Shown one piece after another: positions 1 through 14,429 of a DNA stretch of 14,429 bases. The notes below the pieces were generated by a model. It was given only the letters and a program-made list of their open reading frames with translations. It was not told the DNA's origin and made no database searches. The position numbers and the translations under genes were made by a program. Origin of the DNA: Deinococcales bacterium (GTDB lineage Bacteria; Deinococcota; Deinococci; Deinococcales; JAAFIG01); NCBI GenBank assembly GCA_043778225.1, contig JAYWGM010000088.1, forward strand, positions 1 to 14,429. Reading direction: 5' to 3'. Each line of letters begins with the position of its first letter. Positions within the stretch are counted from its first letter, which is position 1.

Positions 1-9
1 AACATTTCC

Positions 10-96
10 GACTAACAGGAGTAAGGGTGACGTATCTCACGCCGTAATGACAGATTTGCCGTTTTGTGAAAAATCTAAAATGCAGGCGTGAGATAC
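10..96 (+). repeat. Structured dispersed element, copy 1 (nested inverted repeats; candidate recombination site, mobile-element end or ncRNA)
   Basis: Perfect 12-bp inverted repeat GTATCTCACGCC (32-43) / GGCGTGAGATAC (85-96) enclosing AGATTT (52-57) / AAATCT (71-76). Aligns with one indel to the reverse complement of 14342-14429. Confidence 0.75.
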
Positions 97-152
97 TTAG
101 AACTTCTTCACTCGAGCCGACGCGCCCTGCCTAAGCAAAAATGCCGATAAGT

Positions 153-464
153 CTTGAATGCTTTCTTGAGGCTGGCGCTGAACCAAGTAGCGGCTCAAAT
201 CCCGATGATTTACAAATCGGTATGCGTTGGATTCCACTTTTGGGACTCGAGCAGCAAGCACTTTATCCAAAAGCCCTTGCTCAAGCCTTAGTACATTGTT
301 TACTAAATGCTTTGACTATTTTCCGCTTCGCTCCAAAGAGTCTCCGCACTCGTCAACAATGTACTTTGTGTTCACTCGCATAGTTCGCAAAAATTCTACG
401 AATTTATTTAACAGTGTACTTAGCAATGCCTGAGCGCGGTGTTTACTTAGGTGGCGTTAATTAA
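153..464 (+). pseudogene. 3' remnant of a NUDIX-family hydrolase gene, interrupted by a MITE
   Basis: Removing 291-422 gives LECFLEAGAEPSSGSNPDDLQIGMRWIPLLGLEQQALYPKALAQAL-AMPERGVYLGGVN* (TAA 462-464). This resembles NUDIX C-termini (PD..Q.G..W.PL..L....LYP and a terminal VYLGxVN). The Nudix box and N-terminus are missing. Confidence 0.65.
291..419. mobile_element. 129-bp MITE (non-autonomous element)
   Basis: Terminal inverted repeats GTACATTGTTTACTAAAT (291-308) and ATTTATTTAACAGTGTAC (402-419), 15/18 matching. Flanked by duplicated TTA (288-290 and 420-422; equivalently CTTAG). Excision restores a continuous reading frame. Confidence 0.8.
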
Positions 465-540
465 GTGCGCCTTGGCTTGTGCCTATCCCACGTCAAGAAC
501 TTGGTTTTGAAACTTAATCTTCTCGAGATGGGGTTTTTCG

Positions 541-804
541 TTATCGGCGTTTAATCAATCGCTCATACTCATTATGCAGACCAATCCAAAACCATAAATA
601 CCCTGTTGGAACTTTAATCGCTAAGGCTCGGTACGAATCGTTGACTCGAGCCGACCAGAGTTCACTACCTACTTCCTTAAAATGCAGTGAAGGATGCTTT
701 GGATTTTCTTCGAGTAGCCCGTGTTGTTTGTCAGCTAATCGTTGAACTTCGAGCGGTAATGCGTAATAAAACGCCCAGAATCTTGGTGTGGTTTGGTGAT
801 TCAC
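541..804 (-). CDS. Type II toxin, RelE/ParE/HigB superfamily (87 aa)
   Basis: The likely start is the GTG at 804, overlapping the upstream stop (GTGA). Motifs TTPRFW..Y..LP, NPKHPSLHFK, WSARV...YRALA and WFWIG.H.EYERL are typical of this toxin group. Confidence 0.85.
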   Translation of the reverse strand: MNHQTTPRFWAFYYALPLEVQRLADKQHGLLEENPKHPSLHFKEVGSELWSARVNDSYRALAIKVPTGYLWFWIGLHNEYERLIKRR

Positions 805-1031
805 CGTTTTGATACTCGCCCAGCGTTGTAGTCTGCTCGTGCCTCTGCCATCAGCGCGTCTAAATGACCTGCGTTTAAGTCCTGCTCGAGTTGGACATCC
901 CATTCTTCTTGAGAAATTGGTGCTTGATTTAAGTTTTGGATTTCCTCGAGTAAGCGCCCTGCAATTTGATTTTGGGTAGCTTCGGGCAGCGTGTTTAAGG
1001 ATTGAATGGCTTTTTCTAGTACCTGCGTCAT
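801..1031 (-). CDS. Cognate antitoxin (76 aa), probably leaderless
   Basis: MTQVLEKAIQSL..LP...Q..IA.....WD.QLE.D..AG.LD.L..EA...Y.AG pattern typical of partners of this toxin. TACCAT -10 box 7 nt before the ATG at 1031. Coupled to the toxin gene. Confidence 0.8.
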   Translation of the reverse strand: MTQVLEKAIQSLNTLPEATQNQIAGRLLEEIQNLNQAPISQEEWDVQLEQDLNAGHLDALMAEARADYNAGRVSKR

Positions 1032-1123
1032 GGCAAGAATGGTAGCACAGATTGCAGGCGTTAGCTTGTGCTTATGTCGCGCTAAAAAACTTATTTTGCT
1101 ACTCGTTTCTTGCCCCAAAGCGC

Positions 1124-2131
1124 TTAAATTCCCGAAATGCCAACCACAAGACTCGAGACCACAACCAGACCCAAAAAGCCAATCGCGCCAATCCCAAGGG
1201 CTTTAGCACCAACCCGTCGCACTGCCTTCAAATCTACCCCCAAGCCAATGCCAGCCATTGCCATGGCGGTAAAAGCAATCGAGAGCGTCTGGGCAAAACT
1301 CGAGACTTCCTTGGGCAACCAGCCGAGCGAATTAATAAGCCCAACTGCCAAAAACCCAAGTAGAAATTGCGGCAGCACTGGCTGGCGTTGGGTTTCTTTG
1401 GTCTCGAGTTTTGCATCTCGGATTCGCAATATGCTCGAGGCAATCACCAAAGCAGGCGCAAGTAAAGCAACTCGAGTTAATTTTGCTAAAGTGGCGGTGT
1501 CTAAGGCGCTGCTGCTGACACTGGCGGCGGCAATCACCTGACCAACTTCTTGTAGGGTGCTGCCAGTCAGTATGCCGTACTGCAAATCGGTGAGCCCAAG
1601 TGGCTGGCGCAGCAATATAAAGCCAAGCACGCCAAATGTACCGAGTAAACTGACCGTACCAACGGCTAGACTGACCTCTTCATCTTTGGCATTTGAAATA
1701 CTGCCAGCCGCTACGGCTGCCGACGCACCACAAATACCCGTGCCAAATGCCAGACTCAAACGCAATCCTCTGGTCAATCCAGCCCGTTTACCAAGTTCGT
1801 TGACACCAAGAATACCAATCAGCACCATCAGTCCATCCAAAAGTAAAATCAGTGGTCCTGAACTCATCAGGCTCGAGAAATTTAAGCGCACCCCAAGCAG
1901 CACAATCCCAAGGCGCAAAATTGTTTTGGCACTGTAAGAAATACCAGCTTTAAGACTCGAGGGCAGCGCGATACTCGAGCGCACAGCGATACCAAGCACC
2001 AACGCCCAGCCTAAAACTCCAAGAATTTTAAGACCCACAATACCCGGTAAAAGATTAGGGATTCCAGCGATAACGGCGGCAATTGCGGCTATACCTAAAC
2101 AAGTCAGAATGCCAAGGGTGTATTTGGGCAT
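1124..2131 (-). CDS. YeiH/UPF0324 (putative sulfate exporter family) membrane protein
   Basis: 335 aa multi-pass hydrophobic protein with family motifs LRLGIVLLG.RL, GTGICGASA and T..KLTRVALLAP. Confidence 0.9.
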   Translation of the reverse strand: MPKYTLGILTCLGIAAIAAVIAGIPNLLPGIVGLKILGVLGWALVLGIAVRSSIALPSSLKAGISYSAKTILRLGIVLLGVRLNFSSLMSSGPLILLLDGLMVLIGILGVNELGKRAGLTRGLRLSLAFGTGICGASAAVAAGSISNAKDEEVSLAVGTVSLLGTFGVLGFILLRQPLGLTDLQYGILTGSTLQEVGQVIAAASVSSSALDTATLAKLTRVALLAPALVIASSILRIRDAKLETKETQRQPVLPQFLLGFLAVGLINSLGWLPKEVSSFAQTLSIAFTAMAMAGIGLGVDLKAVRRVGAKALGIGAIGFLGLVVVSSLVVGISGI

Positions 2132-2194
2132 GAATGCTGCACAGTCTAACGTTTTTGAGGCATAGAAATTGGTTGTGACGAATGTCTCGAGTTT

Positions 2195-2219
2195 AATTCC
2201 GAGTAAACCGATAGACTTT
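2195..2219 (+). promoter_or_regulatory. Candidate Rrf2/IscR-like operator overlapping a TAGACT -10 box upstream of the iron ABC genes
   Basis: AATTCCGAGTAAACCGATAGACTTT matches 16/25 positions of the IscR type-1 consensus ATASYYGACTRWWWYAGTCRRSTAT as I recall it. It lies 23 nt before the start codon. Confidence 0.4.
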
Positions 2220-2242
2220 AATAGTTCAATTCGGAGGAATCT

Positions 2243-3238
2243 ATGAAGACAATCTTTTTAACCGCACTCGCAGCCATTATTGTGGCAGCCACCGCCGCTT
2301 CACAAACCCAAGAACTAACCGTTTACACCGGACGCGGTAAAGGGCTGGTGGACCCATTGGTGCAAGCCTATCAAGCCGAAACAGGAGTCAAAGTCAATGT
2401 TCGTTATGGCACAGATGCCCAGTTATTGGCGGCAGTCCAAGAAGAAGGCGCACGTTCGCCAGCCGATATTTTCTGGGCAAACACCTCTGGCAGCCTTGGC
2501 TTACTGAGTAAAAACAATCAATTCTTAAAACTCTCGAGCGTTATCACCAACAAGCCCAGTTTCTTTGTCCCTGAAAGTAAAACTTGGACTCCGCTCTCGA
2601 TTCGTTTTCGGGTTTTAGCCTACAACCCCGCCAAAATTAAAGCCGCCGATTTACCAAGCAGTGTTATGGATTTACCAAAAATGACCGCCCTCAAGGGTCG
2701 AATTGGTTGGACTCCAGCCTATGCCAGTTTCCAAGACTTTGTCGGCGCAATGGCTGCCACCAAGGGCGACGCTGCCACCAGCCAGTGGTTGGCTGGTATG
2801 AAGACACTCGAGCCAAAGTCTTATGGCACAAACAATGTTCAGATGCTCGAGGCACTGCGGGCTGGCGAAATTGATGTCGCCCTGACCAACCATTATTATG
2901 TGCTGCGCTTTACCAAAGTTGGCTATGCGATGGGAACACACTATTTTCAAAACGGCGATGTTGGTTCGCTGGCTTTGGTGACGGGTGCGGGTGTCCTAAA
3001 AACCAGCAAAAAACTGGTGGCTTCGCAAAAATTCCTAACTTGGCTGCTCTCGAGTAAAGCCCAGCAGTTCTTTAGTGGTGAAATTTTTGAATACCCTGTG
3101 GTCAAAGGAGCAATTCTGCCAAGCAGCTTACTGCCCCTGAACGAGATGATTAACCGCAGTCCAAAAATAGATTTTGACAAACTAGCAGATTATGTAGACA
3201 ACGCCCAAAAACTGCTGCGCGAACAGGGACTTCTGTAG
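2243..3238 (+). CDS. Fe(III) ABC transporter substrate-binding protein (FbpA/FutA/SfuA family)
   Basis: Signal peptide, LTVYTGR, EEGARSPADIFW and the NHYY double-Tyr iron ligand motif. GGAGG ribosome-binding site. Confidence 0.92.
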   Translation: MKTIFLTALAAIIVAATAASQTQELTVYTGRGKGLVDPLVQAYQAETGVKVNVRYGTDAQLLAAVQEEGARSPADIFWANTSGSLGLLSKNNQFLKLSSVITNKPSFFVPESKTWTPLSIRFRVLAYNPAKIKAADLPSSVMDLPKMTALKGRIGWTPAYASFQDFVGAMAATKGDAATSQWLAGMKTLEPKSYGTNNVQMLEALRAGEIDVALTNHYYVLRFTKVGYAMGTHYFQNGDVGSLALVTGAGVLKTSKKLVASQKFLTWLLSSKAQQFFSGEIFEYPVVKGAILPSSLLPLNEMINRSPKIDFDKLADYVDNAQKLLREQGLL

Positions 3239-3241
3239 AGC

Positions 3242-3299
3242 AGGTAAAAAGGTCAAAGGGTTAAAACTTTTACCTTTTTACCCTTTACCCTTTTTACCT
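3242..3299 (+). repeat. Intercistronic stem-loop built from short tandem 7-8-nt repeats
   Basis: AGGTAAAAAGG (3242-3252) pairs with CCTTTTTACCT (3289-3299). Alternatively GGTAAAAAGGT (3243-3253) pairs with ACCTTTTTACC (3272-3282). Confidence 0.7.
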
Positions 3300-3301
3300 T
3301 T

Positions 3302-4873
3302 ATGAATCAACGACCCTATGCGGCTCGCCGCGCACCACTTGCTTTGGTGCTGTTTGCCTTGGTGGTTGCCTCGAGTATTCTGATTCCATTGTTTTATTTG
3401 GTGGTGCGGGCGCTCGAGGCGGATGGCTCGAGCTTACAAGAAATTGTTTTTCGTGAACGCAATTTGCTGCTGCTTGGCAACACGCTTTTATTGGCAATTT
3501 CAGTGCTGCTTGGCGCAACCTTAATTGCCCTACCCGCCGCATGGCTAACGGCTCGAGCCAAGTTGCCATTTTCAAGATTCTGGGTGATTGCCGCAACCCT
3601 TCCTTTGGCTGTGCCGGGCTATGTTGGCGCGTTTGCCTTGCTGGCTGCCAGTGGTTCTGGTGGGACGCTCCAAGCCTTGGGCATTTCCTTGCCCCGATTG
3701 GATGGCTTTTGGGGGGCAACGGCTATTTTGGCAATCTATGGTGCGCCTTATTTATTTGTCAATCTCAACAATGCTCTACAAAACACCGACCCAGCCCTCG
3801 AGGAAGCATCCCGCAGTTTAGGCTACTCGAGATGGCAGGGTTTTTGGCGAATTACTGTGCCACAGCTTCGCCCCGCTTGGCTATCTGGCGCACTTTTAAT
3901 CACGCTTCATGTGCTGGGCGATTTTGGTGTGGTCAGTTTAATGCGCTTTGAAACTTTTTCCTTTGCGATTTACACCCAGTACATCAGCAGCCTTGACCGG
4001 GTGTATGCCGCATGGCTGGCATTAATTCTATTGCTGCTGACGGTTGTTATCCTTGGACTCGAGGGGATGGCGATGCGCCGTGTCTTTCTAGCCCGCAATC
4101 CCAAAAATACCCGTTCGGTATCGCCCGTTTCGCTTGGTTTTTGGACAATCCCAGCTTTGATGCCGTTGGCTTTGTATGTCGCCATAGCCGTGGCGTTGCC
4201 AATTGTTACAGCCCTGCATTGGATGGCTCGAGAACCGCAGAGTCTTTTCTATAATCCGTGGGCAGAACTCTGGCGGGCGACCCTCGGGACGCTTTCGGCA
4301 GCCGTGCCAGCCGCCTTTTTATGTGCCGCCTGTGCTTTGCCCTTGGCATATTTGGCGGTGCGCCACCAAGGGCGTTTATCAGCTTGGCTCGAGCGCAGCA
4401 GTTATTTGGGTTATGCCACGCCACCTTTGGCATTGGCACTGGCACTGATTTTTGTGACTTTGCGGCTTGTGCCAGACCTCTATCAAACCCTATGGCTGCT
4501 TATTTTTGCCTACACAGTGCATTTTTTAGCCGAAAGCATCGGACCGATTCGTAGCCAACTGTACCAAGTCCCCGTTCGGCTCGAGGAAGCCGCCCGAAGT
4601 CTTGGTTTACGCAGTTCAGAAGTCCTGTGGCGGGTGCTTGTGCCACTTTTGGCTCGAGGAGTGCTGGCGGGAGTGGCATTGGCTTTTTTAAGTGCTGCCA
4701 AGGAATTGCCATTGACCACGATTCTTGCGCCATCTGGTTTTGAAAGCCTTGCCAAAAATGTGTATGGCTACACCTCCGAAGCGATGTTTGGCAAAGCTGC
4801 ACCCCATGCACTGGCTTTAATTTTGGTCTCGAGTGCTTTTATTGGGCTGGTTTTACCGCGCAAAAAAAATTAA
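3302..4873 (+). CDS. Fe(III) ABC transporter permease (FbpB/FutB family)
   Basis: 523 aa with two EAA loops (LEEASRSLG, LEEAARSLG), plus LPLAVPGYVGA and KELPLT. Directly follows the binding-protein gene. Confidence 0.93.
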   Translation: MNQRPYAARRAPLALVLFALVVASSILIPLFYLVVRALEADGSSLQEIVFRERNLLLLGNTLLLAISVLLGATLIALPAAWLTARAKLPFSRFWVIAATLPLAVPGYVGAFALLAASGSGGTLQALGISLPRLDGFWGATAILAIYGAPYLFVNLNNALQNTDPALEEASRSLGYSRWQGFWRITVPQLRPAWLSGALLITLHVLGDFGVVSLMRFETFSFAIYTQYISSLDRVYAAWLALILLLLTVVILGLEGMAMRRVFLARNPKNTRSVSPVSLGFWTIPALMPLALYVAIAVALPIVTALHWMAREPQSLFYNPWAELWRATLGTLSAAVPAAFLCAACALPLAYLAVRHQGRLSAWLERSSYLGYATPPLALALALIFVTLRLVPDLYQTLWLLIFAYTVHFLAESIGPIRSQLYQVPVRLEEAARSLGLRSSEVLWRVLVPLLARGVLAGVALAFLSAAKELPLTTILAPSGFESLAKNVYGYTSEAMFGKAAPHALALILVSSAFIGLVLPRKKN

Positions 4874-5934
4874 CGGGTAGCACCTGGGTCGAGCATCCCT
4901 GTGCGGCAGTCCAGCACAAATTGATGGGTGATGCTAAACGTGCCATTGCCGTAGCCAATTTTCATGGCTTTGCGCCCCGAACCAACCACACAGCGACTGC
5001 GAATCAGACCATTTTGGGCTTTGATGGTTTCTTCGTTTGCGCCGTTGTTTTCAAATAACACCACAGTCTTGTTGGCATTAGGGAAACGCAACTCGAGTGT
5101 AAAGCTGTCCTCGCGTTTGGCTTCGAGGGTGGCACGCAAGGCAAATGGTGCATCGCGCTGCACGGTCACACCTGCCGTACCAGAAAAATCATTAGGCAGA
5201 CGAATCGTGCCTTGGGTCAAGAACGAATCATTTGAACCCGCTTTACGCCAGCCCAACTGCACCACCAGATTCGGGCTAAATTCAAGGTTTCTCGAGAACC
5301 GCCCAGTCGCATCGGTTTTAAGAAGACCAAGGTATTGCTGACCCGAAAAAAGTGCCAATTCTAAACCAAGGTTGGCTGTTCCCTCGAGTTTGACCTGACG
5401 CAGTTCGATAATAGCCCGTTTGCTGTCGGCAATCACCTCAAGTTGGCGCTGCACAAAATTTTGTACGCCGTAAACACGACCATCGTCGGCGGCAAAAACC
5501 CCAATGCCAATATGGGTGTACTCGCGGTTTAAGATTCCAGCCCGATGCGGTGGGCTGTTCATCCATTGGAACATCAATTTTGCGCCAGTCGTGTTGGGGC
5601 TTTCAAAGTTATAAGCAATGTTCTCGCCAGCCCCAAAATCCAAGCCGCCGGCTCGATGAAAGCGTTTTGTTGGCGTTTCAAAGCCAGCCTTATCCGAATC
5701 GTGGGCAAAAAAGTCTCGAGTTGCCATGTCTTGGGCGTGTAAACGAGCCGCCGCCCGTAAGCGTGCGTCAAATTTGAGGGCTGGTAAACCGATCGCCGCC
5801 CGTTCGCGGTTGGTGGACTCGAGAATCACCTGTTCGGCAAACTCTAAGCCAGTGCTGTTGGGCAGTGGTGGCAGTGGGTCGAATGCTAAGGCGACACTGG
5901 CTAAACCAAGCAGGGCAAGAAAAATTCTTTTCAT
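4870..5934 (-). CDS. Secreted CAP/SCP-domain protein (YkwD-like) with an uncharacterised C-terminal region (354 aa)
   Basis: The start at 5934 gives the signal peptide MKRIFLALLGLASVALA, with TAAACT 7 nt upstream. CAP motifs N.ER, AA..HA.DMA..DFFAH, GENIA, WMNSPPHR..IL and IGIG. Confidence 0.88.
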   Translation of the reverse strand: MKRIFLALLGLASVALAFDPLPPLPNSTGLEFAEQVILESTNRERAAIGLPALKFDARLRAAARLHAQDMATRDFFAHDSDKAGFETPTKRFHRAGGLDFGAGENIAYNFESPNTTGAKLMFQWMNSPPHRAGILNREYTHIGIGVFAADDGRVYGVQNFVQRQLEVIADSKRAIIELRQVKLEGTANLGLELALFSGQQYLGLLKTDATGRFSRNLEFSPNLVVQLGWRKAGSNDSFLTQGTIRLPNDFSGTAGVTVQRDAPFALRATLEAKREDSFTLELRFPNANKTVVLFENNGANEETIKAQNGLIRSRCVVGSGRKAMKIGYGNGTFSITHQFVLDCRTGMLDPGATR

Positions 5935-6023
5935 ACCGAACAGTTTAGCGCATTTTTCAAATTCTCGAGCTGGTGTGGTTTGCCCTACCAAAAAAATACA
6001 GTCAAGCGCTAGACTGGCGCTTG

Positions 6024-7082
6024 ATGAGCAAAGGTCGAGTATTAGCCGCCATGTCGGGTGGCGTGGATTCAAGTGTCACCGCCGCCTTACTGCGCGACGA
6101 TGGTTATGAAGTGATTGGCGCGATGATGCGTTTCTGGCCCGACCAAAAACGGGTCTCGACTTTTGATTCGTGCTGCTCACCCGATGCGGCTTACGAAGCC
6201 CGCCGCGTGGCTGACCATTTGGGTTTGCCGTTTTACTTACTCGATTACCGCGAGGTCTTTGAAGAGAACATCATCGCGCCTTTTGTGCAAGAATACCGCG
6301 AGGGACGCACCCCAAACCCGTGTGTACTTTGCAACAGCAAAGTTAAATTTGACCATTTGGTCAAAAAAGCCCAGATGCTTGGCTGTGATTTTGTGGCGAC
6401 TGGGCATTTTGTACAGCGCATAGACAACGGAATCCAACCAGAATTTCATCGTGGCAACGACCCACGCAAAGACCAAACTTATTTTTTGTGGGGAACACCG
6501 CGCCACTCGCTCGAGAAGGTGCTGTTTCCTGTTGGGCATCTCGAGAAACCAGCCGTGCGTGAATTGGCTCGAGGCTACGGGTTAATCACTGCCGAGAAAG
6601 CCGAGAGCCAAGACATTTGTTTTGTGCCAAATACGATAAAAGATTATATTTCTGAACGTATCGCACCAAAGTCGGGCGAGATTATCGATATGCTTGGAAC
6701 AGTTGTGGGCGAACATGAAGGCACACAGTTTTATACCATCGGGCAAAAAAAGGGCATGAAACTGCACCAAAGCCATATTGAACAATTTATTGTGCGAATA
6801 GATGCAGCTAAAAACCAGATTGTGGTTGGTAGTAAAACCGATTGCAGCAGCGCCACACTCGAGGCTCGAGGTGTAAATTACTTGGTAGACCTCGAGCAGT
6901 TACCGACTGACCTCGAAGCCCAAGTCCGTTACCGCACTGCGCCCGTTCCAGCTAAATTAACTCGAGCCGAAGCGACTGGCTTTAGCTTGGAATTTCTCGA
7001 GCCACAATTTGCGGTCACGCCCGGACAGAGTGTGGTGCTGTACAGTGGGACAAGGTTGCTTGGTGGCGGGTTTATTGTATAA
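6024..7082 (+). CDS. mnmA: tRNA-specific 2-thiouridylase MnmA
   Basis: PP-loop AMSGGVDSS, TPNPCVLCN, ATGH, KDQTYFL, ESQDICF, YTIGQ and AVTPGQS. TAGACT at 6010-6015 supports a start at 6021 or 6024. Confidence 0.97.
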   Translation: MSKGRVLAAMSGGVDSSVTAALLRDDGYEVIGAMMRFWPDQKRVSTFDSCCSPDAAYEARRVADHLGLPFYLLDYREVFEENIIAPFVQEYREGRTPNPCVLCNSKVKFDHLVKKAQMLGCDFVATGHFVQRIDNGIQPEFHRGNDPRKDQTYFLWGTPRHSLEKVLFPVGHLEKPAVRELARGYGLITAEKAESQDICFVPNTIKDYISERIAPKSGEIIDMLGTVVGEHEGTQFYTIGQKKGMKLHQSHIEQFIVRIDAAKNQIVVGSKTDCSSATLEARGVNYLVDLEQLPTDLEAQVRYRTAPVPAKLTRAEATGFSLEFLEPQFAVTPGQSVVLYSGTRLLGGGFIV

Positions 7083-7085
7083 CTA

Positions 7086-7116
7086 GCAAGCAAAAAACTT
7101 TGGTCAAAAGACCAAA
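7086..7116. repeat. Direct-repeat copy 1 of a terminator-like hairpin (copy 2 at 8782-8813)
   Basis: GCAAGCAAAAAACTTTGGTCAAAAGACCAAA versus GCAAGTAAAAAACTTTGGTCAAAAAGACCAAA: one substitution and one indel. Confidence 0.8.
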
Positions 7117-7271
7117 AATGAAGTGGCAAAAGTCAATTTCGAGCAATTATCGTACACAGTCAAAAACGCATTCATACCTTATCGGTAGAAGTTCCCAAGA
7201 ACCCTGAAACTCGAGAAAGGCGGGTTGCTAAAGCTGTTCAAGCCCTCCAAAACAATCAATACGCCATTTAA
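7111..7271 (+). pseudogene. 3' remnant of a YdeI/OmpD-associated (OmdA) family gene with a frameshift
   Basis: Removing a duplicated AC at 7156-7157 gives TKNEVAKVNFEQLSYSQKRIHTLSVEVPKNPETRERRVAKAVQALQNNQYAI*, matching the F..LSYS.......K.PETR.RR..KA pattern. The 5' part is absent. Confidence 0.7.
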
Positions 7272-7310
7272 CCAATGTGATTTGTGTATCTTGGCTCATA
7301 CAATAGCCTT

Positions 7311-8237
7311 ATGCCGATTCGAGCTTATACCCCGTCCGATGCAACAGCTTTGATCACACTCTTGCAGCGCCAAAATAACAACATTATCACACTCGAGTCT
7401 TTTACCCAAACCGAAGCCCAACATGATTCAAGCACTGCGCTTTGGCGTGTGCTGCTCGAGGAAAATACTGTTATTGTTGGTTGTGCTGAACTGAGTATGC
7501 GCCCTTCGACTCCGGTGGGTTGGCGGGACTTAAAAATTGTTGTTGCAAAAAATGCCGAAGGTCAGGGATTTGGTCAGCGCTTACTCGAAGAAGCCCTAGC
7601 CCAAGCTGCAAAACTGCGTTTAATCGGCTTTGAAACTTCGGTGCGTGATAACAATCATCCTAGTCGAAGATGGCTCGAGAAACGTGGTTTTGAATTTGAT
7701 TTCCACCGCTTTGAAAGCGAACTAAACCTGCAAGAATTTCAAGCATCACAGTTTACCAATGCAGTCACTCGAGCCGAAAGCCAAGGTATTAGCTTTGCAA
7801 CTCGAGCTGATTTTCTGAATGACTCTGGTTTACGTGGCTTGCACACACTGGATAATCAGTTGTTTTTAGATACACCCGACGCACCAGGACGCACCCCTCT
7901 CAGTTTTGAGCGTTTCCAGAAATTGATTGCAGAAAATCCACAAGTTACGCCCGAATCAATCATTCTTGCCGTAAGCGGTAACACGTTTATTGGCATGACG
8001 ATCATGCTCCGAGAAGACAAAGCATTTTACACAGGCATGACAGGGGTGACTCGAGAACACCGTGGGAAAGGCATTGCTTTAGCCTTAAAAGTGCTTGGGA
8101 TACACTACGCCATTCAACAAGGAGCGGTTAAAATGACAACCCATAATCACTCGAGGAACGCGCCAATGATAGCGGTCAATCAAAAACTGGGTTATCAGCA
8201 ACGCAGCGGACTTTGGGTTTTGAAACGCCAATTATGA
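7311..8237 (+). CDS. Tandem (two-domain) GNAT acetyltransferase (308 aa), probably leaderless
   Basis: Two acetyl-CoA motifs (V....EGQGFG and TGVTREHRGKGIA), plus T.N...NAPM..VN.KLGY. TACAAT lies 6 nt before the ATG at 7311. Confidence 0.9.
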   Translation: MPIRAYTPSDATALITLLQRQNNNIITLESFTQTEAQHDSSTALWRVLLEENTVIVGCAELSMRPSTPVGWRDLKIVVAKNAEGQGFGQRLLEEALAQAAKLRLIGFETSVRDNNHPSRRWLEKRGFEFDFHRFESELNLQEFQASQFTNAVTRAESQGISFATRADFLNDSGLRGLHTLDNQLFLDTPDAPGRTPLSFERFQKLIAENPQVTPESIILAVSGNTFIGMTIMLREDKAFYTGMTGVTREHRGKGIALALKVLGIHYAIQQGAVKMTTHNHSRNAPMIAVNQKLGYQQRSGLWVLKRQL

Positions 8238-8681
8238 AATAGCCATTTGCCGAATTGCACCAAGATGATAAGCCGCGTGAGCCACGAGAGAAATACCAAC
8301 CGTGGTCATCATTGGGTTATTTGGGTCAAAACCATTGGGCAATTGGGTAATCAGCCTTTCGTACTCGAGCCGCAAATGGCTTTTAAGTTCTGTCCATTCT
8401 TCGACAGTCACACTTTGTACTTCCCAGCTTTCGACCCAATTTCTCGAGGCTGGCTGACCGCGCATTAAAGCATTCGACATCGCCAAACTCCAACGCAAAT
8501 GATTGGTATGTGCCGCTATGCTCGAGTGACCTATTTTTCTCGAGGCATCCTCGGCACTTATTTTTTCGAGGGTGGCAAATAAGCCGCTATCTGCGCCGTG
8601 GTCAGAAAACCAAGATTGGGTTTGTGTACCCGTGTATGCCTCTGCCAGTAAGGTTTTGATGCTCTCCAAAAAGTGATTCAT
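8232..8681 (-). CDS. DinB/YfiT-family protein (149 aa)
   Basis: SIAAHTNHL and AHAAYHLGAIRQ His motifs. TATAAT lies 9 nt before the ATG at 8681. Confidence 0.88.
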   Translation of the reverse strand: MNHFLESIKTLLAEAYTGTQTQSWFSDHGADSGLFATLEKISAEDASRKIGHSSIAAHTNHLRWSLAMSNALMRGQPASRNWVESWEVQSVTVEEWTELKSHLRLEYERLITQLPNGFDPNNPMMTTVGISLVAHAAYHLGAIRQMAIS

Positions 8682-8704
8682 ATGACCCAAATTATAAACC
8701 AAAT

Positions 8705-8725
8705 TTACGTCATGTTCTGACGTAA
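8705..8725 (-). promoter_or_regulatory. Palindromic operator TTACGTCA-N5-TGACGTAA at the -35 position of the DinB promoter
   Basis: Perfect 8-bp inverted repeat (8705-8712 / 8718-8725), 8 nt upstream of the TATAAT box (8696-8691). Confidence 0.7.
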
Positions 8726-8781
8726 TTAAATTTCAAAATGTTTTGTATAAAAAAAGCAACCCTCGAGTTTCTCGAGAAGTG

Positions 8782-8816
8782 GCAAGTAAAAAACTTTGGT
8801 CAAAAAGACCAAAGTT
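8782..8816 (-). terminator. Rho-independent terminator of the 8838-9425 gene (also direct-repeat copy 2)
   Basis: 10-bp stem AACTTTGGTC (8792-8801) / GACCAAAGTT (8807-8816) running into a T tract on the minus strand, 21 nt after the stop codon. Confidence 0.75.
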
Positions 8817-8837
8817 AAGTGCTAAACAAGAAGCTTC

Positions 8838-9425
8838 TTAGCGTTTGACCAGTGGGAATTCAAAAATCCGTGTCGGACGATTCTGCTCAAGATTCATATT
8901 TTCGGTGCGAAAACCTGTGAATAGCTGGTTCTGCTCGAGTTTAAGAATATCGTATTCTTGAGTGTAATCTTTGACTGTAGCAATTCCAAATGCCATGCAG
9001 CCAGTGATACTAACATCGCGTTCGGTGTTGATTGGTAATGTTGCATTACCGCACCCAGTTTGGTTTAAGACGGCTTGAATATCGGGTACATGAGCCGTGA
9101 TAAATTTTGCAGTTTGACCCCATGTAACTTTCAAAGTGTTAGGGCTGAAAATTTCGCCTAAAGTGTACGGTCCAACAATTTTATTGGTGAACAACTGCAC
9201 GTTACAAGCAGGGTCAGCGAAAATCGTGTACTTGAGTTGCCAAGTGTTGGTCGTGAATACAAAATTACGTTTAATGAAGGCGGTTTCAGCCCCTGCCACA
9301 AATGTTTCGCAACCCTTACTATCCCACGTACCAACCAAATCGGTATTCTTAAACAAATTTTGTTGTGCCGAAACGTGAAAAGCAGCCAAACCAGCAATAA
9401 TCGAAGCGAGAATAATTTTTTTCAT
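8838..9425 (-). CDS. Secreted APCDD1-domain-like protein (195 aa)
   Basis: Signal peptide and AAGGAG ribosome-binding site. Ordered motifs G.W.S..CE, F..R.F.F....W...Y..F.DP.C, G.Y..G, LN...CG, DV...GC...G, EY.I.K.EQ, LF.G.R and PL match the APCDD1 repeat as I recall it. Confidence 0.75.
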   Translation of the reverse strand: MKKIILASIIAGLAAFHVSAQQNLFKNTDLVGTWDSKGCETFVAGAETAFIKRNFVFTTNTWQLKYTIFADPACNVQLFTNKIVGPYTLGEIFSPNTLKVTWGQTAKFITAHVPDIQAVLNQTGCGNATLPINTERDVSITGCMAFGIATVKDYTQEYDILKLEQNQLFTGFRTENMNLEQNRPTRIFEFPLVKR

Positions 9426-9500
9426 GAGAACTCCTTTTTGGCAATATCATGCCGTCTCGAGGCGTACAGCCCTCGAAGTGAGGATGAGGTTTCTAATGGT

Positions 9501-9534
9501 CTTGCTCGAGAAAAACTATTTTGACTCGAGCAAG
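9501..9534 (-). terminator. Stem-loop downstream of the VOC gene, built on paired CTCGAG sites
   Basis: CTTGCTCGAG (9501-9510) / CTCGAGCAAG (9525-9534), 10 nt after the stop codon. No clear T tract. Confidence 0.5.
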
Positions 9535-9544
9535 TAAGGCTGAC

Positions 9545-9940
9545 TTAGCGCGGGGCAGGTTGTAAAACGCTAATCAAATTTCCGTATAAGTCTTTTAGAT
9601 AAAATTGCCGACCCCAAGGCATATTTTCTGGTTCGCCTAGCAGTTCTACACCTTTAGACTTAAAATCTGCGTGGGTTTGGTCGGCATTTTCGGTATTCAA
9701 AACCAGTAACGCGGTATCGCCAGCTTGTTTTCCAACGGCATTTTTTTGCGATTCGGAACTTGCCACATCGAGACTGATTTCTGGGTAATCCACACCAACT
9801 GGTGCAACTGTGACCCAACGTTGTTCGGGGGTGAAGGGAACATCCATGCGTAACTCGAGTCCAAGGGATTCTTGGTAGAACTTCAGGGCTTGGTCTTGAT
9901 TGCTGACGAGAACTGTGATGTATGCGTATCCGTTTAACAT
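9545..9940 (-). CDS. VOC/glyoxalase family protein
   Basis: V..QD.AL.FY...LG, RWVTVAP and PWGR.F...D.YGN. AAGGAG ribosome-binding site. Confidence 0.92.
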   Translation of the reverse strand: MLNGYAYITVLVSNQDQALKFYQESLGLELRMDVPFTPEQRWVTVAPVGVDYPEISLDVASSESQKNAVGKQAGDTALLVLNTENADQTHADFKSKGVELLGEPENMPWGRQFYLKDLYGNLISVLQPAPR

Positions 9941-10007
9941 GGTGTTGCTCCTTTTTGCGCTTTGTTTGGCGCTTGAGAAAACTATAATCGAGTCGGATAC
10001 ATGGGCG

Positions 10008-10022
10008 CTTATCCGAAATTGC
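10008..10022 (-). promoter_or_regulatory. Candidate AraC-family activator site for the VOC gene
   Basis: GCAATTTCGGATAAG lies 21 nt upstream of a TATAGT -10 box (9986-9981). It shares GCAA-N3-CG-N-A-N-AAG with 11626-11640. Confidence 0.45.
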
Positions 10023-10033
10023 TAAATTTGAAT

Positions 10034-10933
10034 TCAGACTCGAGCAGCCACACGGTACTGGGTTGGCGCAACCCGAAAACGGGCTTTGAAACTCCTCGAG
10101 AATGTTCCAAGGCTATCAAAGCCCAAATCAAAACAAATGTCAGTCACGTCCTTATCGGTGTCTGTCAACCATTTTTTAGCCAACTCGAGGCGCTTATGGG
10201 TCACAAATTGATAGGGTGTAATTTCAAAAGTCTGCTTAAAAAGCCGTAGAAAATGATGTGGCGATAAATTCACCACATCGGCAATACCAAATAAATTCAG
10301 ATTCTCGAGGTACGAGGCTTCAATAAAATCTCGAGCCACGTGTAAGCGCTTAAATAATTCTTCGCGGGTGCTGCGTTTGGCGGCTGGCAAACGCTCAATT
10401 TCGGCTTCCAGATTACGATGCAGCACCAGTAAATGCTCAATAATCGGATGCAATGCCTGCTCGAGTGGGTCTTGGGTCACTTCTGCCCAAATAAACGCCC
10501 GTAAAAAACCCATGAACTGCGACAAGCGCGTATCTCGAGGGTAGGTGCGTTCATAAAACTCGAGTGGCAAACGCAAATCTGGATTATCCAATTGCTTTTC
10601 TGGCGGCAATGCAGCCGCGCTGTAGACATCCGCGCCAAGTCCAGTCCGAAAGCGAATCGATAGAACCTCGGTGTTATCTTCAATGCGGTGAGCGTGACGT
10701 TGATGGTCGTTGAGAATCAAATACCGGTCTGGTGTGACCGCAAACCGAGCGCGTCCAACTTCGTGCAACTCGAGTCCAGAAAAAACACTGTACAAAGATA
10801 AAGACGTACTGTGAATCGGGATTTGCTGCTCATTGCCTTTGGCATGAATCAAAACATTCATCCAACCCCGAGGATTAGGTGCGTCTAAACTGCGTCCGAT
10901 GGTGGTTAAGGCGGCGTAATCAGTCAAGAACAC
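10034..10933 (-). CDS. AraC-family transcriptional regulator
   Basis: C-terminal double HTH (LSPHHFLRLFKQTF..TPYQF, GFDSLGTFSRSFK). TACAAT lies 5 nt before the GTG start. Confidence 0.93.
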   Translation of the reverse strand: MFLTDYAALTTIGRSLDAPNPRGWMNVLIHAKGNEQQIPIHSTSLSLYSVFSGLELHEVGRARFAVTPDRYLILNDHQRHAHRIEDNTEVLSIRFRTGLGADVYSAAALPPEKQLDNPDLRLPLEFYERTYPRDTRLSQFMGFLRAFIWAEVTQDPLEQALHPIIEHLLVLHRNLEAEIERLPAAKRSTREELFKRLHVARDFIEASYLENLNLFGIADVVNLSPHHFLRLFKQTFEITPYQFVTHKRLELAKKWLTDTDKDVTDICFDLGFDSLGTFSRSFKARFRVAPTQYRVAARV

Positions 10934-10954
10934 ACCTGATTGTACCTCGAGAAG

Positions 10955-11566
10955 CTACTCGGTTACAGCCAGCCGCACACCAAGTACCGCAAAAATAAGC
11001 GCAAATGAACGCCGTAACCACAAAATAACCTTGGGCGACTGAATCACATATTGCCGCACAGCGCTTGCCAGAATACCGTAGATCACAAAGATAACCAGTG
11101 TAATCAGCATAAAAACAGCACTTAAAAATAGCATCTCGAGAATCGGTGAATCAGAAGCTCGAGGAATAAAAAGTGGTAAGAACGCCAAGAAGAAAATCGT
11201 TAATTTAGGATTAAGGATATTCAGTAAAAATGCCCTTAAAGCAATCTGCCAAGGGCTTTTGCTCGAGCCAGCCGAATTAAACGTGAGTGCATTATTATCG
11301 CGCCACATTTGCCAAGCCAAGTAGAGTAAGTACGCTGCTCCAACAAATTTAAGCCCCTGAAAAACCACCGCACTGATGTGCAGCACCAATGTAAGCCCCA
11401 GAATACTCGCCAGTAAATGCGGCAAAATACCAAGTGTGCAACCAATCGCAGCCGCAATACTGGCACGCCAACCCAGAAAAATACCAGTCGAAATCGTGTA
11501 AATCGCACCAGTCCCCGGAATCAAAACCACAATCAAAGACGTAAGTAAAAATTCGGCATTCAACAC
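10955..11566 (-). CDS. LysE/RhtB-family exporter
   Basis: IPGTG, GAAYLLYLA and NILNPK..IFFLAFLP motifs. AGGAGG ribosome-binding site before the GTG. Confidence 0.93.
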   Translation of the reverse strand: MLNAEFLLTSLIVVLIPGTGAIYTISTGIFLGWRASIAAAIGCTLGILPHLLASILGLTLVLHISAVVFQGLKFVGAAYLLYLAWQMWRDNNALTFNSAGSSKSPWQIALRAFLLNILNPKLTIFFLAFLPLFIPRASDSPILEMLFLSAVFMLITLVIFVIYGILASAVRQYVIQSPKVILWLRRSFALIFAVLGVRLAVTE

Positions 11567-11602
11567 AAAAAGCCTCCTGCTCGAGCCTCGAGCAACAAAA
11601 GC

Positions 11603-12454
11603 CTACTGCGACAAACGCTGCGCGTCTTGTACGCTCTTGCGGTACTGAGCGGGCGTAACAGCCCAAAGTCGTTTGAACCAGCGCGTTAAATGGCTCTGGT
11701 CGGCAAAACCACACGCCAAGGCAACACTGGCAATATCTTGTTCCTCGAGTAACAATTTTTTAGCATTCTTGACCCGAATCTGACGCAAAAACGCATGAGG
11801 TGCAATACCAACGGCTTTTGTAAACACATGAACCAAATGGAAACGATTCAAGCCAGTTACTCGAGAAAGCGCAGCCAGCGAAACATCCTCGGAAAAATTT
11901 GCCTCGAGAAACTGTTTAATCTGTGTCACGGCTCGAGGTTCGCGCCCGAATTTCTGGGGTCGCACCGTTGCATCCCCGTAACGCCCTATAAAACGCGCCA
12001 AAACATTTTGTAACACGGTTTCAGACTCGAGCAGCGAAGTAGCAGGATTCTCGAGCAACCGATGCACATTCAGGAGTTCCAACGCCACAGCATCATCGGA
12101 AATCACACCCGACTGAAAAAACGGCAATCCCCGAGAAAACCCAGCCATATCCGAAACGATATTCTCCAAGAATTCTGGCTCGAGATAAAACATTCGGTAG
12201 CCCCAACCCTTGAGCGTCGCAGGTTGACCAGTGTGCGGTTCATCAGGAATACACAAGTTAATCTGCCCTCGAGTCGCAACGACATTTTCACCACGGTAAT
12301 AAAAACCAAGAGCGCCATGTTCAATCACACCAATCGCATACTGCTCATGCGTATGCAAAGGAAACGACTGCGTGAGATGCTGACCACGCAGCAATTCCAC
12401 GTTATGAAGCCTTGGAATATGCCAGATTTTAGAGATGGACTGAGCGGGAAGCAT
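11603..12454 (-). CDS. AraC-family transcriptional regulator with cupin-like ligand-binding domain
   Basis: FPLHTHEQY, P.EPHTG and GFADQSHLTRWFKR. TATTAT lies 7 nt before the ATG. Confidence 0.93.
   Translation of the reverse strand: MLPAQSISKIWHIPRLHNVELLRGQHLTQSFPLHTHEQYAIGVIEHGALGFYYRGENVVATRGQINLCIPDEPHTGQPATLKGWGYRMFYLEPEFLENIVSDMAGFSRGLPFFQSGVISDDAVALELLNVHRLLENPATSLLESETVLQNVLARFIGRYGDATVRPQKFGREPRAVTQIKQFLEANFSEDVSLAALSRVTGLNRFHLVHVFTKAVGIAPHAFLRQIRVKNAKKLLLEEQDIASVALACGFADQSHLTRWFKRLWAVTPAQYRKSVQDAQRLSQ
11626..11640 (-). promoter_or_regulatory. Candidate AraC-family activator site for lysE, inside the last codons of the regulator gene
   Basis: GCAAGAGCGTACAAG lies 20 nt upstream of TAGGCT (11605-11600), whose TAG is the regulator's stop codon. 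Confidence 0.45.
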
Positions 12455-12478
12455 TGCGGTAATAATACAAAAATTTTC

Positions 12479-12763
12479 TCAAGCCAACTCGAGCCTAACT
12501 TCACGCCCAAGCCTAGCCTCGAGTGTAATCAGCATTTCTAAACTAAATTTATCATGCTTACCACGCATTAAATCAGAAACTCGAGATTGGGCAATGCCAA
12601 GTTGTTCAACAGCTTGGGCTTGGGTTAATTGCTTGGCGTTAATAAAACCACGTAAATCATTGATAAGTTTAGAGCGCAATTGCAAAATTGCAGCCTCGGC
12701 AGGGTCAAAACCCAAGTCTGTAAACACATTCCCACTGGATTCAATAATTGGTTCTTGCATCAT
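12479..12763 (-). CDS. HigA-like XRE/HTH antitoxin
   Basis: SSGNVF.DLGF, LTQ.QA...LGI.Q.RVSDL.RGK..KFSL..L. GGAGG ribosome-binding site. The start overlaps the reconstructed toxin stop. Confidence 0.9.
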   Translation of the reverse strand: MMQEPIIESSGNVFTDLGFDPAEAAILQLRSKLINDLRGFINAKQLTQAQAVEQLGIAQSRVSDLMRGKHDKFSLEMLITLEARLGREVRLELA

Positions 12764-13065
12764 TGTCCTCCTATTTGACGATAACGCCGTCTTGCCAATT
12801 CAATGTCTTCTCGAGCCGTTTGCTGGGTTTTCTTTTGGAAAGCGTGCAGCACAAAATAGCCGTCTCGAGTTTTGCCACATAAATAATTCGCCATTCACCA
12901 AAGATATGAATACGGATTTCACCCACTCCTGAGTCAATATCAGACATTGGCTTCCAGTCGCTAGGGTCAAAGCCACGTTGCATCAAACCCTGCTTGTCGC
13001 TTTACTTCAGCAAGAAAATCCCGTAAGGCATCAAGGCTCGAGCCTACAAACTGGAGCGGCTTCAC
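12760..13065 (-). pseudogene. HigB/Gp49-like RelE-family toxin inactivated by two frameshifts
   Basis: Three segments separated by two frameshifts: MKPLQFVGSSLDALRDFLAEVKRQAGFD / QRGFDPSDWKPMSDIDSGVGEIRIHIFGEWRIIYVAKLETAI / VLHAFQKKTQQTAREDIELARRRYRQIGGQ*. Breaks near 12981 and 12853. Confidence 0.88.
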
Positions 13066-13073
13066 AAGTGCCA

Positions 13074-13097
13074 ATATATCAAAAAAAATTGATAAAT
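13074..13097 (-). promoter_or_regulatory. Candidate antitoxin operator overlapping the TATATT -10 box of the TA operon
   Basis: Inverted repeat TATCAA (13077-13082) / TTGATA (13089-13094). TATATT at 13078-13073 lies 7 nt before the GTG. Confidence 0.55.
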
Positions 13098-13340
13098 ACT
13101 CGAGACCAATGGCTCGAGAACCTATGTTTTCTGGAATATGGGTATGTTAGTGCCAAGTTGCATCGTCAGACAACTGCTCGAGCAAACGCTGGGCTTGTTC
13201 ACGAATCAGGGTTTTCATGCGATTAAGGATACAGCTTGGGCTTAAAAGTATCAAGAAAATGCTGTGGCTCGAGCTTATGGCTATAGATTTGGGCAAAGCC
13301 TAGCCTACACTTTTGAACGAGTTGACGTACAACACGTTCA

Positions 13341-13784
13341 CTACTTCCAGATTTTCATGACTTGCCGCAAACATATTATCTTTCCCAAATGATATGCCGT
13401 GTGAACTGCCAGAAACTCCAAGGCATCGCGCCACCTTGAATGCGGATACTCTGGTTCTTGTGAATTTAACCAGTTCTCGTCCTTGGCTAGTTCTACAGCT
13501 CGCTTAGAGTATGTCAGGAACATCAAAACAAGGTCATCCCATTCCTGCTGATTGGCTGGTGCAGAAGATTGAGGAAAATGCTCTTCATACGACCAGCGCT
13601 CCAAAGCTGCTCTGCCCTCATCCAAACTAATTTTTAGAACCATAGCTGTGTGCCAGAGTTCTTGATAGATACTATGGGGAACTTCGTTGGGACGCGCCCT
13701 TACTTGTTCAAGGGTCAGTCCCGTAAAAATGGATTCACGTGGCGCAAATCCTCCTGTGAGCAGCAAATCATCCCAATCATTCAT
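13341..13784 (-). CDS. DinB-family protein (147 aa)
   Basis: PHSIYQELWH and AVHTAYHLGKI..LRQ motifs. Confidence 0.88.
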   Translation of the reverse strand: MNDWDDLLLTGGFAPRESIFTGLTLEQVRARPNEVPHSIYQELWHTAMVLKISLDEGRAALERWSYEEHFPQSSAPANQQEWDDLVLMFLTYSKRAVELAKDENWLNSQEPEYPHSRWRDALEFLAVHTAYHLGKIICLRQVMKIWK

Positions 13785-13914
13785 GGTTTTTTCCCCAGTA
13801 GTGTTTAGAAATCGTGTTTGTAGGTTGGCTTGGTATCCTAATCAATCATATCACTGACTACAAAAATTGTATTCATTTTCTATGAACTAAAACTCGAGCC
13901 TAGCAGTGTACAGA

Positions 13915-13937
13915 ATGGGCTTTGCCCATCTTTTTTT
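13915..13937 (+). terminator. Plus-strand intrinsic terminator with no evident plus-strand gene upstream
   Basis: ATGGGC-TTT-GCCCAT-C-TTTTTTT. A second hairpin GCCTCGAGC (13938-13946) / GCTCGAGGC (13957-13965) follows. Confidence 0.6.
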
Positions 13938-13978
13938 GCCTCGAGCCACAGCCTTTGCTCGAGGCTTTAATTTCGTAT

Positions 13979-14248
13979 TCAGATGCTAATCGCTGCCCTA
14001 AGGATGGCATCATTACCACCGTATTGCTTCACGGCTTTCTCAAAATCCTGACGATTGGTTTCTCGAGCCAAATTGTCCTTGTCAAACATAATTAGACCAA
14101 AGAAACTAAAATCGGCTACAAAACGCTGGGTGCTGATTTGAAAGGCTTTGACGGTAGCGTGTTGCTGGTCACGCAGGATCATCACAGGGGTTTTTCCGTA
14201 GAAATAGTATTCTACTTTTGGCGCAGTCAGTTCTTTTTGTTTACGCAT
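13979..14248 (-). CDS. Hypothetical protein (89 aa), possible immunity/antitoxin protein
   Basis: Intact ORF whose ATG overlaps an upstream stop (TAATG) and is preceded by GGTGGTGAG. Function is inferred only. Confidence 0.7.
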   Translation of the reverse strand: MRKQKELTAPKVEYYFYGKTPVMILRDQQHATVKAFQISTQRFVADFSFFGLIMFDKDNLARETNRQDFEKAVKQYGGNDAILRAAISI

Positions 14249-14340
14249 TACCGCTCACCACCTTCTAGCACAAGCATTTCTTGCCATGCCTGAGTGTACA
14301 TGGTTTTTGAAACATTGACCAGTGTTTCTAATAACTGATA
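14248..14340 (-). pseudogene. 3' remnant of a gene translationally coupled to the 89-aa ORF
   Basis: YQLLETLVNVSKTMYTQAWQEMLVLEGGER* ends at TAA 14250-14248. Upstream, the frame hits stops at 14382 and 14394 inside the structured element. Confidence 0.55.
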
Positions 14341-14341
14341 C

Positions 14342-14429
14342 CGAATTAACTTAATCACTCTCGTTTGACCCAAAAACGGTCAAACTGTCGCTCAAGCGTT
14401 AATTCGGTCTTTTATCACTCCTTTTAGTC
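14342..14429 (-). repeat. Structured dispersed element, copy 2
   Basis: 11-bp inverted repeat ACCGAATTAAC (14340-14350) / GTTAATTCGGT (14398-14408) enclosing GTTTGACC (14363-14370) / GGTCAAAC (14378-14385). Shares GACTAAnAGGAGT, GAC, ACGC, GACAG and CCGTTTT in register with 10-96. Confidence 0.75.

Follow-up and report, generated by a model that had tools for sequence, protein, structure and literature searches.

Bacterial MITEs that are moved by IS630/Tc1-mariner-type transposases include RUP of Streptococcus pneumoniae and MITEEc1, and their insertion goes with a duplication of TA; for IS630 elements themselves the usual statement is that TA, and not TNA, is duplicated. In Neisseria, the Correia elements (CREE/NEMIS) represent MITEs about 100-155 bp in length; they duplicate TA, their long inverted repeats fold as RNA, their central site is conserved, and they have an IHF site and are known to be processed by RNase III. 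The IS200/IS605-derived palindromic elements (PATE) and REP sequences have no inverted termini, no target duplication and hairpin ends that are cut by an HUH enzyme. Small noncoding repeats (SNRs) of Deinococcus radiodurans were reportedly described by Makarova et al. in 1999 and 2001. Two articles give 295 such 'mosaic' repeats of 60-215 bp for D. radiodurans and treat one type, SNR4, as possibly mobile (PMC1978522, PMC11276467), and an element MITEEc1_IS630 is named in another (PMC11602168).

The window analysed here is a stretch of 14,429 nucleotides from a Deinococcales bacterium, and its positions 1-14429 make up an entire contig (C88) of an assembly of 107 contigs and 4.03 Mb that is 89% complete. 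An initial annotation of this DNA had placed two related structured elements at its ends, at 10-96 on the forward and at 14342-14429 on the reverse strand, and both the positions and the letters given for them were confirmed. The explanation that we favour, with a probability of roughly 0.87, is that these window-end elements are gene-less IS630-associated MITEs that are mobilised in trans and were cut by the contig ends.

The elements resemble MITEs of the RUP/MITEEc1 type in being short and without an ORF, in having terminal inverted repeats that match those of IS630, in TA insertion (subfamily A), in their many intergenic copies and in their hairpin folds. They differ from that type in that subfamilies B, C and D duplicate TNA, and in an internal scaffold that is no deletion remnant of the partner IS, is common to lineages with different termini and has helices in which changes are compensated. 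The Correia elements are similar in MITE size, TA duplication, long folding inverted repeats and a conserved centre, but their sequence is unrelated, and the IHF site and the RNase III processing are features of the Correia elements. Like attC sites of integrons, the elements are imperfect palindromes in which structure weighs more than sequence, whereas attC sites have no target duplication, form arrays with their cassettes next to intI and are recombined by a tyrosine recombinase.

Anatomy of the repeat family and of the two window copies

Further copies were sought in the genome, where the core pattern CGACYARNRGGAGT had 77 matches compared with 1 in the reversed control, far more than expected by chance, and an nhmmer profile built from 13 complete copies gave 107 matches, made up of 30 full-length copies, 62 copies cut by contig ends and 15 partial internal ones. 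In alignments of the copies the similarity stopped sharply at both ends. The 30 full copies are about 140-180 nt long and have no ORF, a complete element as delimited by the alignments measuring about 140-150 nt, and at least four subfamilies (A to D) are present together in the genome. An element starts with the 5' terminal repeat and hairpin 1, continues with the core CGACYARNRGGAGT and its purine-rich linker, then repeats the terminal sequence internally in direct orientation, and is completed by a short stem-loop and the 3' terminal repeat; the long hairpin (hairpin 2) is formed by the internal terminal-repeat copy paired with the 3' terminal repeat. The terminal inverted repeats read TAAGTACCTCCCC.. 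with ..GGCGTGAGATACTTA in the A type and TACCAAATT.. with ..AATTCGGTA in the B type. No ORF common to the copies was found within 3 kb upstream across 15 internal copies. The AGGAG in the core was considered as a working ribosome-binding site and dropped, there being no conserved start codon downstream.

The left window copy (1..97, forward strand; nhmmer match at 3-103, model positions 43-146) is the 3' two-thirds of a subfamily-A MITE cut by the contig start, and it matches complete A copies through ...GAGATACT. Its first letters (1..9, ..AACATTTCC) are a remnant of the 3' arm of hairpin 1, which in complete A copies is seen as GGAAATGTTTTAG...CTAAAACATTTCC directly 5' of the core, and the conserved core CGACTAACAGGAGT, present in 30/30 full copies, follows at 9..22. 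The letters AAC ATT TCC GAC TAA, which had been taken for a possible gene end, are thus the 3' arm of hairpin 1 and then the core, an arrangement found in all complete A copies. The outer 5' arm of hairpin 2 (GTATCTCACGCC, 32..43), recognised from the fold and from pair counts, is the internal direct copy of the terminal repeat. The inner stem-loop of hairpin 2 (AGATTT ... AAATCT) occupies 52..76, and double changes were present in 7/8 of the pairs predicted for it by RNAalifold. The outer 3' arm (GGCGTGAGATACT, 85..97) is at the same time the 3' terminal inverted repeat; the similarity between copies ends here, and the arm is homologous to the termini of IS630-family elements. It is followed at 98..99 by TA, a putative target duplication of the A type as judged from the TA flanks of internal A copies. 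All of these features lie on the forward strand.

The right window copy (14339..14429, reverse strand; nhmmer match at 14429-14335, model positions 51-146) is the 3' two-thirds of a subfamily-B MITE cut by the contig end, which matches complete B copies through ...AATTCGGTA. On the same strand its core GACTAAAAGGAGT was located by the motif listing at 14417..14429, with the first C lying beyond the contig end, and the fold placed the outer 5' arm of hairpin 2 (ACCGAATTAAC) at 14398..14408 and the inner stem-loop (GTTTGACC ... GGTCAAAC) at 14363..14385. The outer 3' arm, again the 3' terminal inverted repeat (GTTAATTCGGTA), was identified from the fold and the copy alignment at 14339..14350. 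The flanking TCA at 14336..14338 (reverse strand) corresponds to one copy of a TNA duplication, going by the TNA flanks of internal B, C and D copies, and its mate lies beyond the contig end.

An identity of 49/87 with one indel had been reported for the two window copies, and a MAFFT alignment agreed with this, giving 49 invariant columns within 10-96 and one indel. The differences between the paired arms had been described as compensated, which proved real, but the arm lengths of 9 and 5 bp did not hold, given that in the fold the long hairpin of copy 1 has an outer stem of 12 bp and an inner stem of 6 bp, and that of copy 2 an outer stem of 11 bp and an inner stem of 8 bp. The RNA folding energies were -26.7 kcal/mol for copy 1 and -29.5 kcal/mol for copy 2 (z-scores -3.4 and -5.5), and 0/200 shuffles equalled either value; the long hairpin forms on either strand of both window copies. 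The view that the two copies represent a family of sites with a conserved architecture, exchangeable base-paired arms and invariant linkers is supported by these data, and the family is repeated genome-wide.

Target duplications and candidate IS630-family partners

The trinucleotide TNA was identical on both sides in 11/11 internal B, C and D copies of this genome (TGA in four copies, TAA in three, TCA in three and TTA in one). The same was found for 16/20 copies from Deinococcus wulumuqiensis, an independent set that was taken from one replicon and picked solely by terminal-repeat coordinates. For subfamily A, TA was present on both sides in 13 of 14 internal copies, mostly in the context YTAR, and a degenerate A copy on contig C30 had TA on the 5' side only; the TA of the A type is palindromic, so that a duplication is here indistinguishable from an extended inverted repeat. 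At one B locus (B_C28) contiguous flanks without the element were found in four of seven same-genus genomes, and these flanks are 9-20 nt apart compared with 155 nt here, the exact border being blurred by a divergence of 20-30%. One A-type locus (A_C38) has both flanks on a single contig in a relative (G008), where the element is absent and the intergenic DNA is too diverged to fix the borders. Among the testable copies, 28/29 were located outside long ORFs.

The repeats are short and non-coding, have terminal inverted repeats and target duplications, show presence/absence polymorphism and have an autonomous element with matching termini, which are the characters by which a MITE is recognised; one of the possibilities raised initially, that of a mobile element, is accordingly supported by the inverted termini, the duplications and the empty locus. 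An identity as PATE or REP is contradicted by the inverted termini and the TNA and TA duplications.

The candidate autonomous partners were found in related genomes. An element of about 1070 bp in genome G141 (L150:1432-2501) is organised like an IS630, encoding proteins with HTH_32/33/23 and DDE_3 domains, and is flanked by TA. Its ends read TAAGTACCTCCC.. and TAAGTACTTCCC.. (in longer form TAAGTACCTCCCGCATGAATTTTAGAGA and TAAGTACTTCCCATGTATACTTTAGAGA) and agree with the 5' ends of A-type and G141-type MITEs at about 22-23 of 28 nt by hand count. A same-genus IS630 end, at the end of L224, reads TAAGTACCCCC, and the IS630 termini of genome G103, A(A/G)AGCATTTGTCATAA (AGAGCATTTGTC), are those of a third MITE subtype. 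A further IS630 subgroup, which has ends TACCAA(A/C)TTTA..TAGATA and TNA in place of plain TA beside them, was found in three genomes of the genus (G005, contig C26, L234; G007, contig C510, L233; G006, L257, L263 and L268), and end fragments of this TACCAA type are located at seven contig ends of this genome (on C14, C34, C37, C51, C59, C75 and C98), where TNA precedes the fragment in 7/7 cases. The sequence TACCAAATT is common to the TACCAA-type IS630 and to subfamilies B, C and D, and the match of the B type to the IS630 ends is short, about 9-15 nt (9-10 nt at the 5' end and about 13/20 nt at the 3' end, hand count). Judged by these termini, the match to IS630 appears clear for A and weaker for B. 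Identical TNA flanks were present in two of the five TACCAA-terminus elements in which both flanks were read, namely four 98-nt copies and the full IS of G005. The 98-nt copies represent a two-terminus MITE which this IS630 subgroup has of its own in G006 and G002.

From the agreement of the termini we infer that IS630-family (DDE_3) transposases would recognise the terminal inverted repeats of the MITEs and move them in trans, with subfamily A presumably inserting at TA and subfamilies B, C and D being predicted to duplicate TNA on insertion. The A type fits the TA-duplication rule of IS630, whereas B, C and D show TNA. Small repeats of Deinococcales that have long been unexplained would in this way gain a likely mechanism if taken as MITEs that depend on IS630 and use TA or TNA as insertion sites.

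A gene for an intact IS630 transposase was not found in the 89%-complete assembly, where the search gave just a 24-bit DDE_3 fragment. Hairpin 1 and the core were not found inside the IS630 elements that were read, and the MITEs are therefore not simple deletion derivatives of these elements. Two other candidates of this genome were considered as partners and rejected: a DDE_Tnp_4 pseudogene on contig C12 has ends of a different kind and is linked to the family only through an A copy that interrupts it, and a DDE_Tnp_1 element at the start of contig C79 has unrelated ends. Likewise, no matching termini were present among the DDE_Tnp_4 and DDE_Tnp_1 elements of G103, G124, G012, G014, G003, G005 and one D. 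wulumuqiensis replicon. A full-length partner was not found on the D. wulumuqiensis replicon, where the matched terminal-repeat pairs are about 50-350 nt apart among the places listed. In the C12 region (C12:1-1100, L124) the A-type MITE splits the pseudogene, which is IS5/Harbinger-like, and directly beside the pseudogene stands a B-type MITE with a 37-nt insert of its own, so that three layers of mobile DNA are found within 1.1 kb.

Covariation of the internal scaffold

A covariance model with a hand-set structure was used to align 54 copies, which were taken from the present genome, from two Deinococcus replicon records and from 18 or more other genomes. In this alignment 87.2% of the paired cells were complementary compared with 26-49% in controls in which the partners were slid by one to three columns, double changes occurred in 30/30 pairs, and the covariation score of 0.570 was reached neither by the slid controls (at most 0.13) nor by any of 500 shuffles, all of these values being obtained from an alignment fitted to the structure of the model and from copies that are related by descent, most of those in other genomes having been found through the core pattern. 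When RNAalifold was applied to a plain MAFFT alignment it detected the inner stem only, because the subfamilies were misaligned. Helices that are kept by compensatory change are not predicted by simple MITE models, and the reason why the internal scaffold is conserved belongs to the part of the MITE account that we infer. An internal scaffold that is kept by covariation under changing termini is an oddity of these elements.

One reading, which adds to the MITE explanation and does not replace it, is that the conserved scaffold is a functional single-stranded structure, either an RNA of the element or single-stranded DNA folded for transposition, and that the MITE is its vehicle. The pairing frequency, the double changes and the covariation score speak for this idea, but the alignment was made to follow the model structure, the copies share descent, and the conservation of the core is partly built in by the way in which the copies from other genomes were found. 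In subfamily A the copies differ in the outer stem of hairpin 2 by compensated changes that are not followed by the 5' terminal repeat, and the same scaffold is found between termini of the TA type and of the TNA type; against this, a correction of quasi-palindromes, which occurs by template switching, could keep the arms of the DNA complementary without selection. Within the core, the letters at positions 5 and 9 change together, as T..A, C..G or in some cases T..G, with no C..A among the matches listed for the family of this genome, but C..A cores exist outside the family (e.g. CGACCAACAGGAGT in several other-family genomes), and the core is altered (..GAGCGGATGCGAGT) in 13/20 of the terminus-selected D. 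wulumuqiensis copies. In the stems G:T exceeded A:C by 23:1 and 2:1 with symmetric scoring and by 62:33 in the model-fitted alignment, counts that do not represent independent events, and this excess hints at folding of the strand shown. The orientation relative to neighbouring ORFs had no clear bias (++ 8, +- 7, -- 5 and -+ 3, n = 23), and Rfam gave no match. On balance we regard a functional scaffold as unlikely. If it were functional, the scaffold would offer an example, rare among bacteria, of a structured module that transposons spread.

About as unlikely is a fuller proposal, according to which the scaffold (hairpin 1, a core with a 2-bp mini-hairpin flanked by CCGA/GAGTRG, and hairpin 2) would be ancient and would have persisted across Deinococcales, with its termini re-tuned to at least two IS630 lineages (TA and TNA) and with compensatory changes preserving its helices all the while. 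The scaffold would then itself be the selected unit, as a single-strand intermediate of transposition or as a MITE-carried RNA with a cellular role.

Contig ends, distribution and nested elements

According to the nhmmer matches, the repeat touches 59 of the 214 contig ends, and more than one quarter of the contig breaks in the assembly are due to it. The copies are near-identical over more than one k-mer length and for this reason the short-read assembly broke inside them. The motif GACTAANAGGAGT had 47 matches in the genome compared with 0 in the control, and the listing of these matches showed that many contigs begin with the motif or end 52-65 nt past it, a pattern typical of a repeat that has collapsed in the graph of a short-read assembly. 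Since the assembly breaks inside repeats, C88 starts and ends in a copy, and both window copies are truncated by the contig ends and are without the 5' approximately 50 nt. Given that 59 of 214 contig ends lie in the same repeat, the inward-facing arrangement of the two window-end copies, which the initial annotation had pointed out, is an artefact of the assembly; the left copy of this whole contig belongs to subfamily A and the right copy to subfamily B, and no unit is bounded by the pair. The lesson for similar cases is that elements at contig ends should be taken as assembly artefacts before biology is read into their arrangement.

The missing half of each window copy is hidden by a contig break, and relatives have IS630 elements whose termini are the same, which would also be compatible with full-length insertion sequences that extend past the contig ends and of which the window-end copies show just the outer ends. 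This is very improbable, as the hairpin 1 arm and the core that stand before the break are specific to the MITE scaffold and absent from the IS630 ends that were read, all 30 uninterrupted copies are about 140-180 nt long, and the complementary 5' half is found at the ends of other contigs, with an overlap of 52-65 nt. Integron attC-like or other tyrosine-recombinase sites, suggested by the imperfect palindromes with conserved spacing, the TAAC-like letters near the 5' end and small HTH/toxin-antitoxin-like genes nearby (HTH_37 at 12479-12763), have next to no likelihood, in view of copies that are dispersed singly, kilobases apart, on many contigs, in both orientations and between ordinary chromosomal genes, of the terminal inverted repeats and TNA/TA duplications, of an empty locus that is without the element alone and involves no cassette gene, and of the existence of DDE (IS630-family) transposon partners.

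The IS630-associated MITEs are not restricted to this genome. The core pattern was enriched in 18/19 genomes of the family, with up to 39 matches compared with 2 in the control outside the present genome, and in a minority of the genomes of a sister family (e.g. 60 vs 8 in G124, 31 vs 0 in G103 and 27 vs 0 in G141), and most of the 364 genomes of the phylum were at control level. A BLAST search against plasmid records gave matches in Deinococcus only, where the G103-type element was found at 33 places on one D. wulumuqiensis replicon and as one degenerate copy with 74% identity in D. radiodurans. On the replicon of D. wulumuqiensis R12 (NZ_CP049358.1, L269-L288) an insertion of 21-22 nt was seen in the core of 10/20 copies and an insertion of 14 nt in the hairpin 2 loop of 3/20, and the density of MITEs is about one copy per 7 kb, with about 50 terminal-repeat pairs on this replicon of 324 kb.

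The elements are probably akin to the SNRs of D. radiodurans, with which they were compared by description and through the one D. radiodurans copy with 74% identity. Both kinds of repeat are found in Deinococcales, are non-coding, of 60-215 bp, multi-copy and mosaic, the last through nested 37-nt inserts in the present elements, whereas IS630 partners, a TNA duplication and covariation go without mention for the SNRs in the available text of the two articles (PMC1978522, PMC11276467). A full-text literature search found no description of the element, of the link to IS630 or of the covariation in the article text accessible to it. A search of Rfam gave 0 matches at E<=1 in the window and, at 11 loci with full copies, one chance-level match (tpke11, 21.7 bits compared with a gathering score of 43). 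No named family had been recognised at the outset, and the Rfam result agrees with this, though the kind of element, a MITE, is known and the relatives in D. radiodurans and D. wulumuqiensis very likely belong to the SNRs.

The mini-element of about 37 nt (GCGACCC.GCCCGT.A + GGTGC...GGGTCAAGA) that is nested in some copies was found in at least 126 copies in the genome compared with 0 in the reversed control. It consists of the first 16 and the last 21 bases of an IS110-family element on contig C26 (C26:30345-31734, L130) that has a 355-aa ORF with DEDD_Tnp_IS110 and Transposase_20 domains. Its sites in the MITEs are fixed: one follows GACTAA, and the others are the 5' internal loop and the apical loop of hairpin 2; the mini-element is also present in the loops of other palindromic repeats, and it nests up to three deep in its own left-right junction. 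Further loci are C98:44400-44700, C53:5250-5594 and C39:19700-20050. This nesting may explain the 'mosaic' look of the small repeats of Deinococcus.

In genome G124 an IS5-family element of the DDE_Tnp_1 type, which is present in multiple copies with ends TAGAGACTGTCTGG and ORFs of 137 and 209 aa, abuts the MITE end in five of the seven loci read (L189, L192, L194, L200 and L203), which suggests that this element prefers the TAGAG-like terminus of the MITE as a target.

In the window itself, a 94-aa HTH_37/HTH_3 protein and a small ORF just upstream form an antitoxin-toxin-like pair at 12479-12986 on the reverse strand. The rest of the window consists of ordinary chromosomal genes, including parts of an ABC transporter, an MnmA-like tRNA methyltransferase, a GNAT protein, AraC regulators, LysE and DinB.
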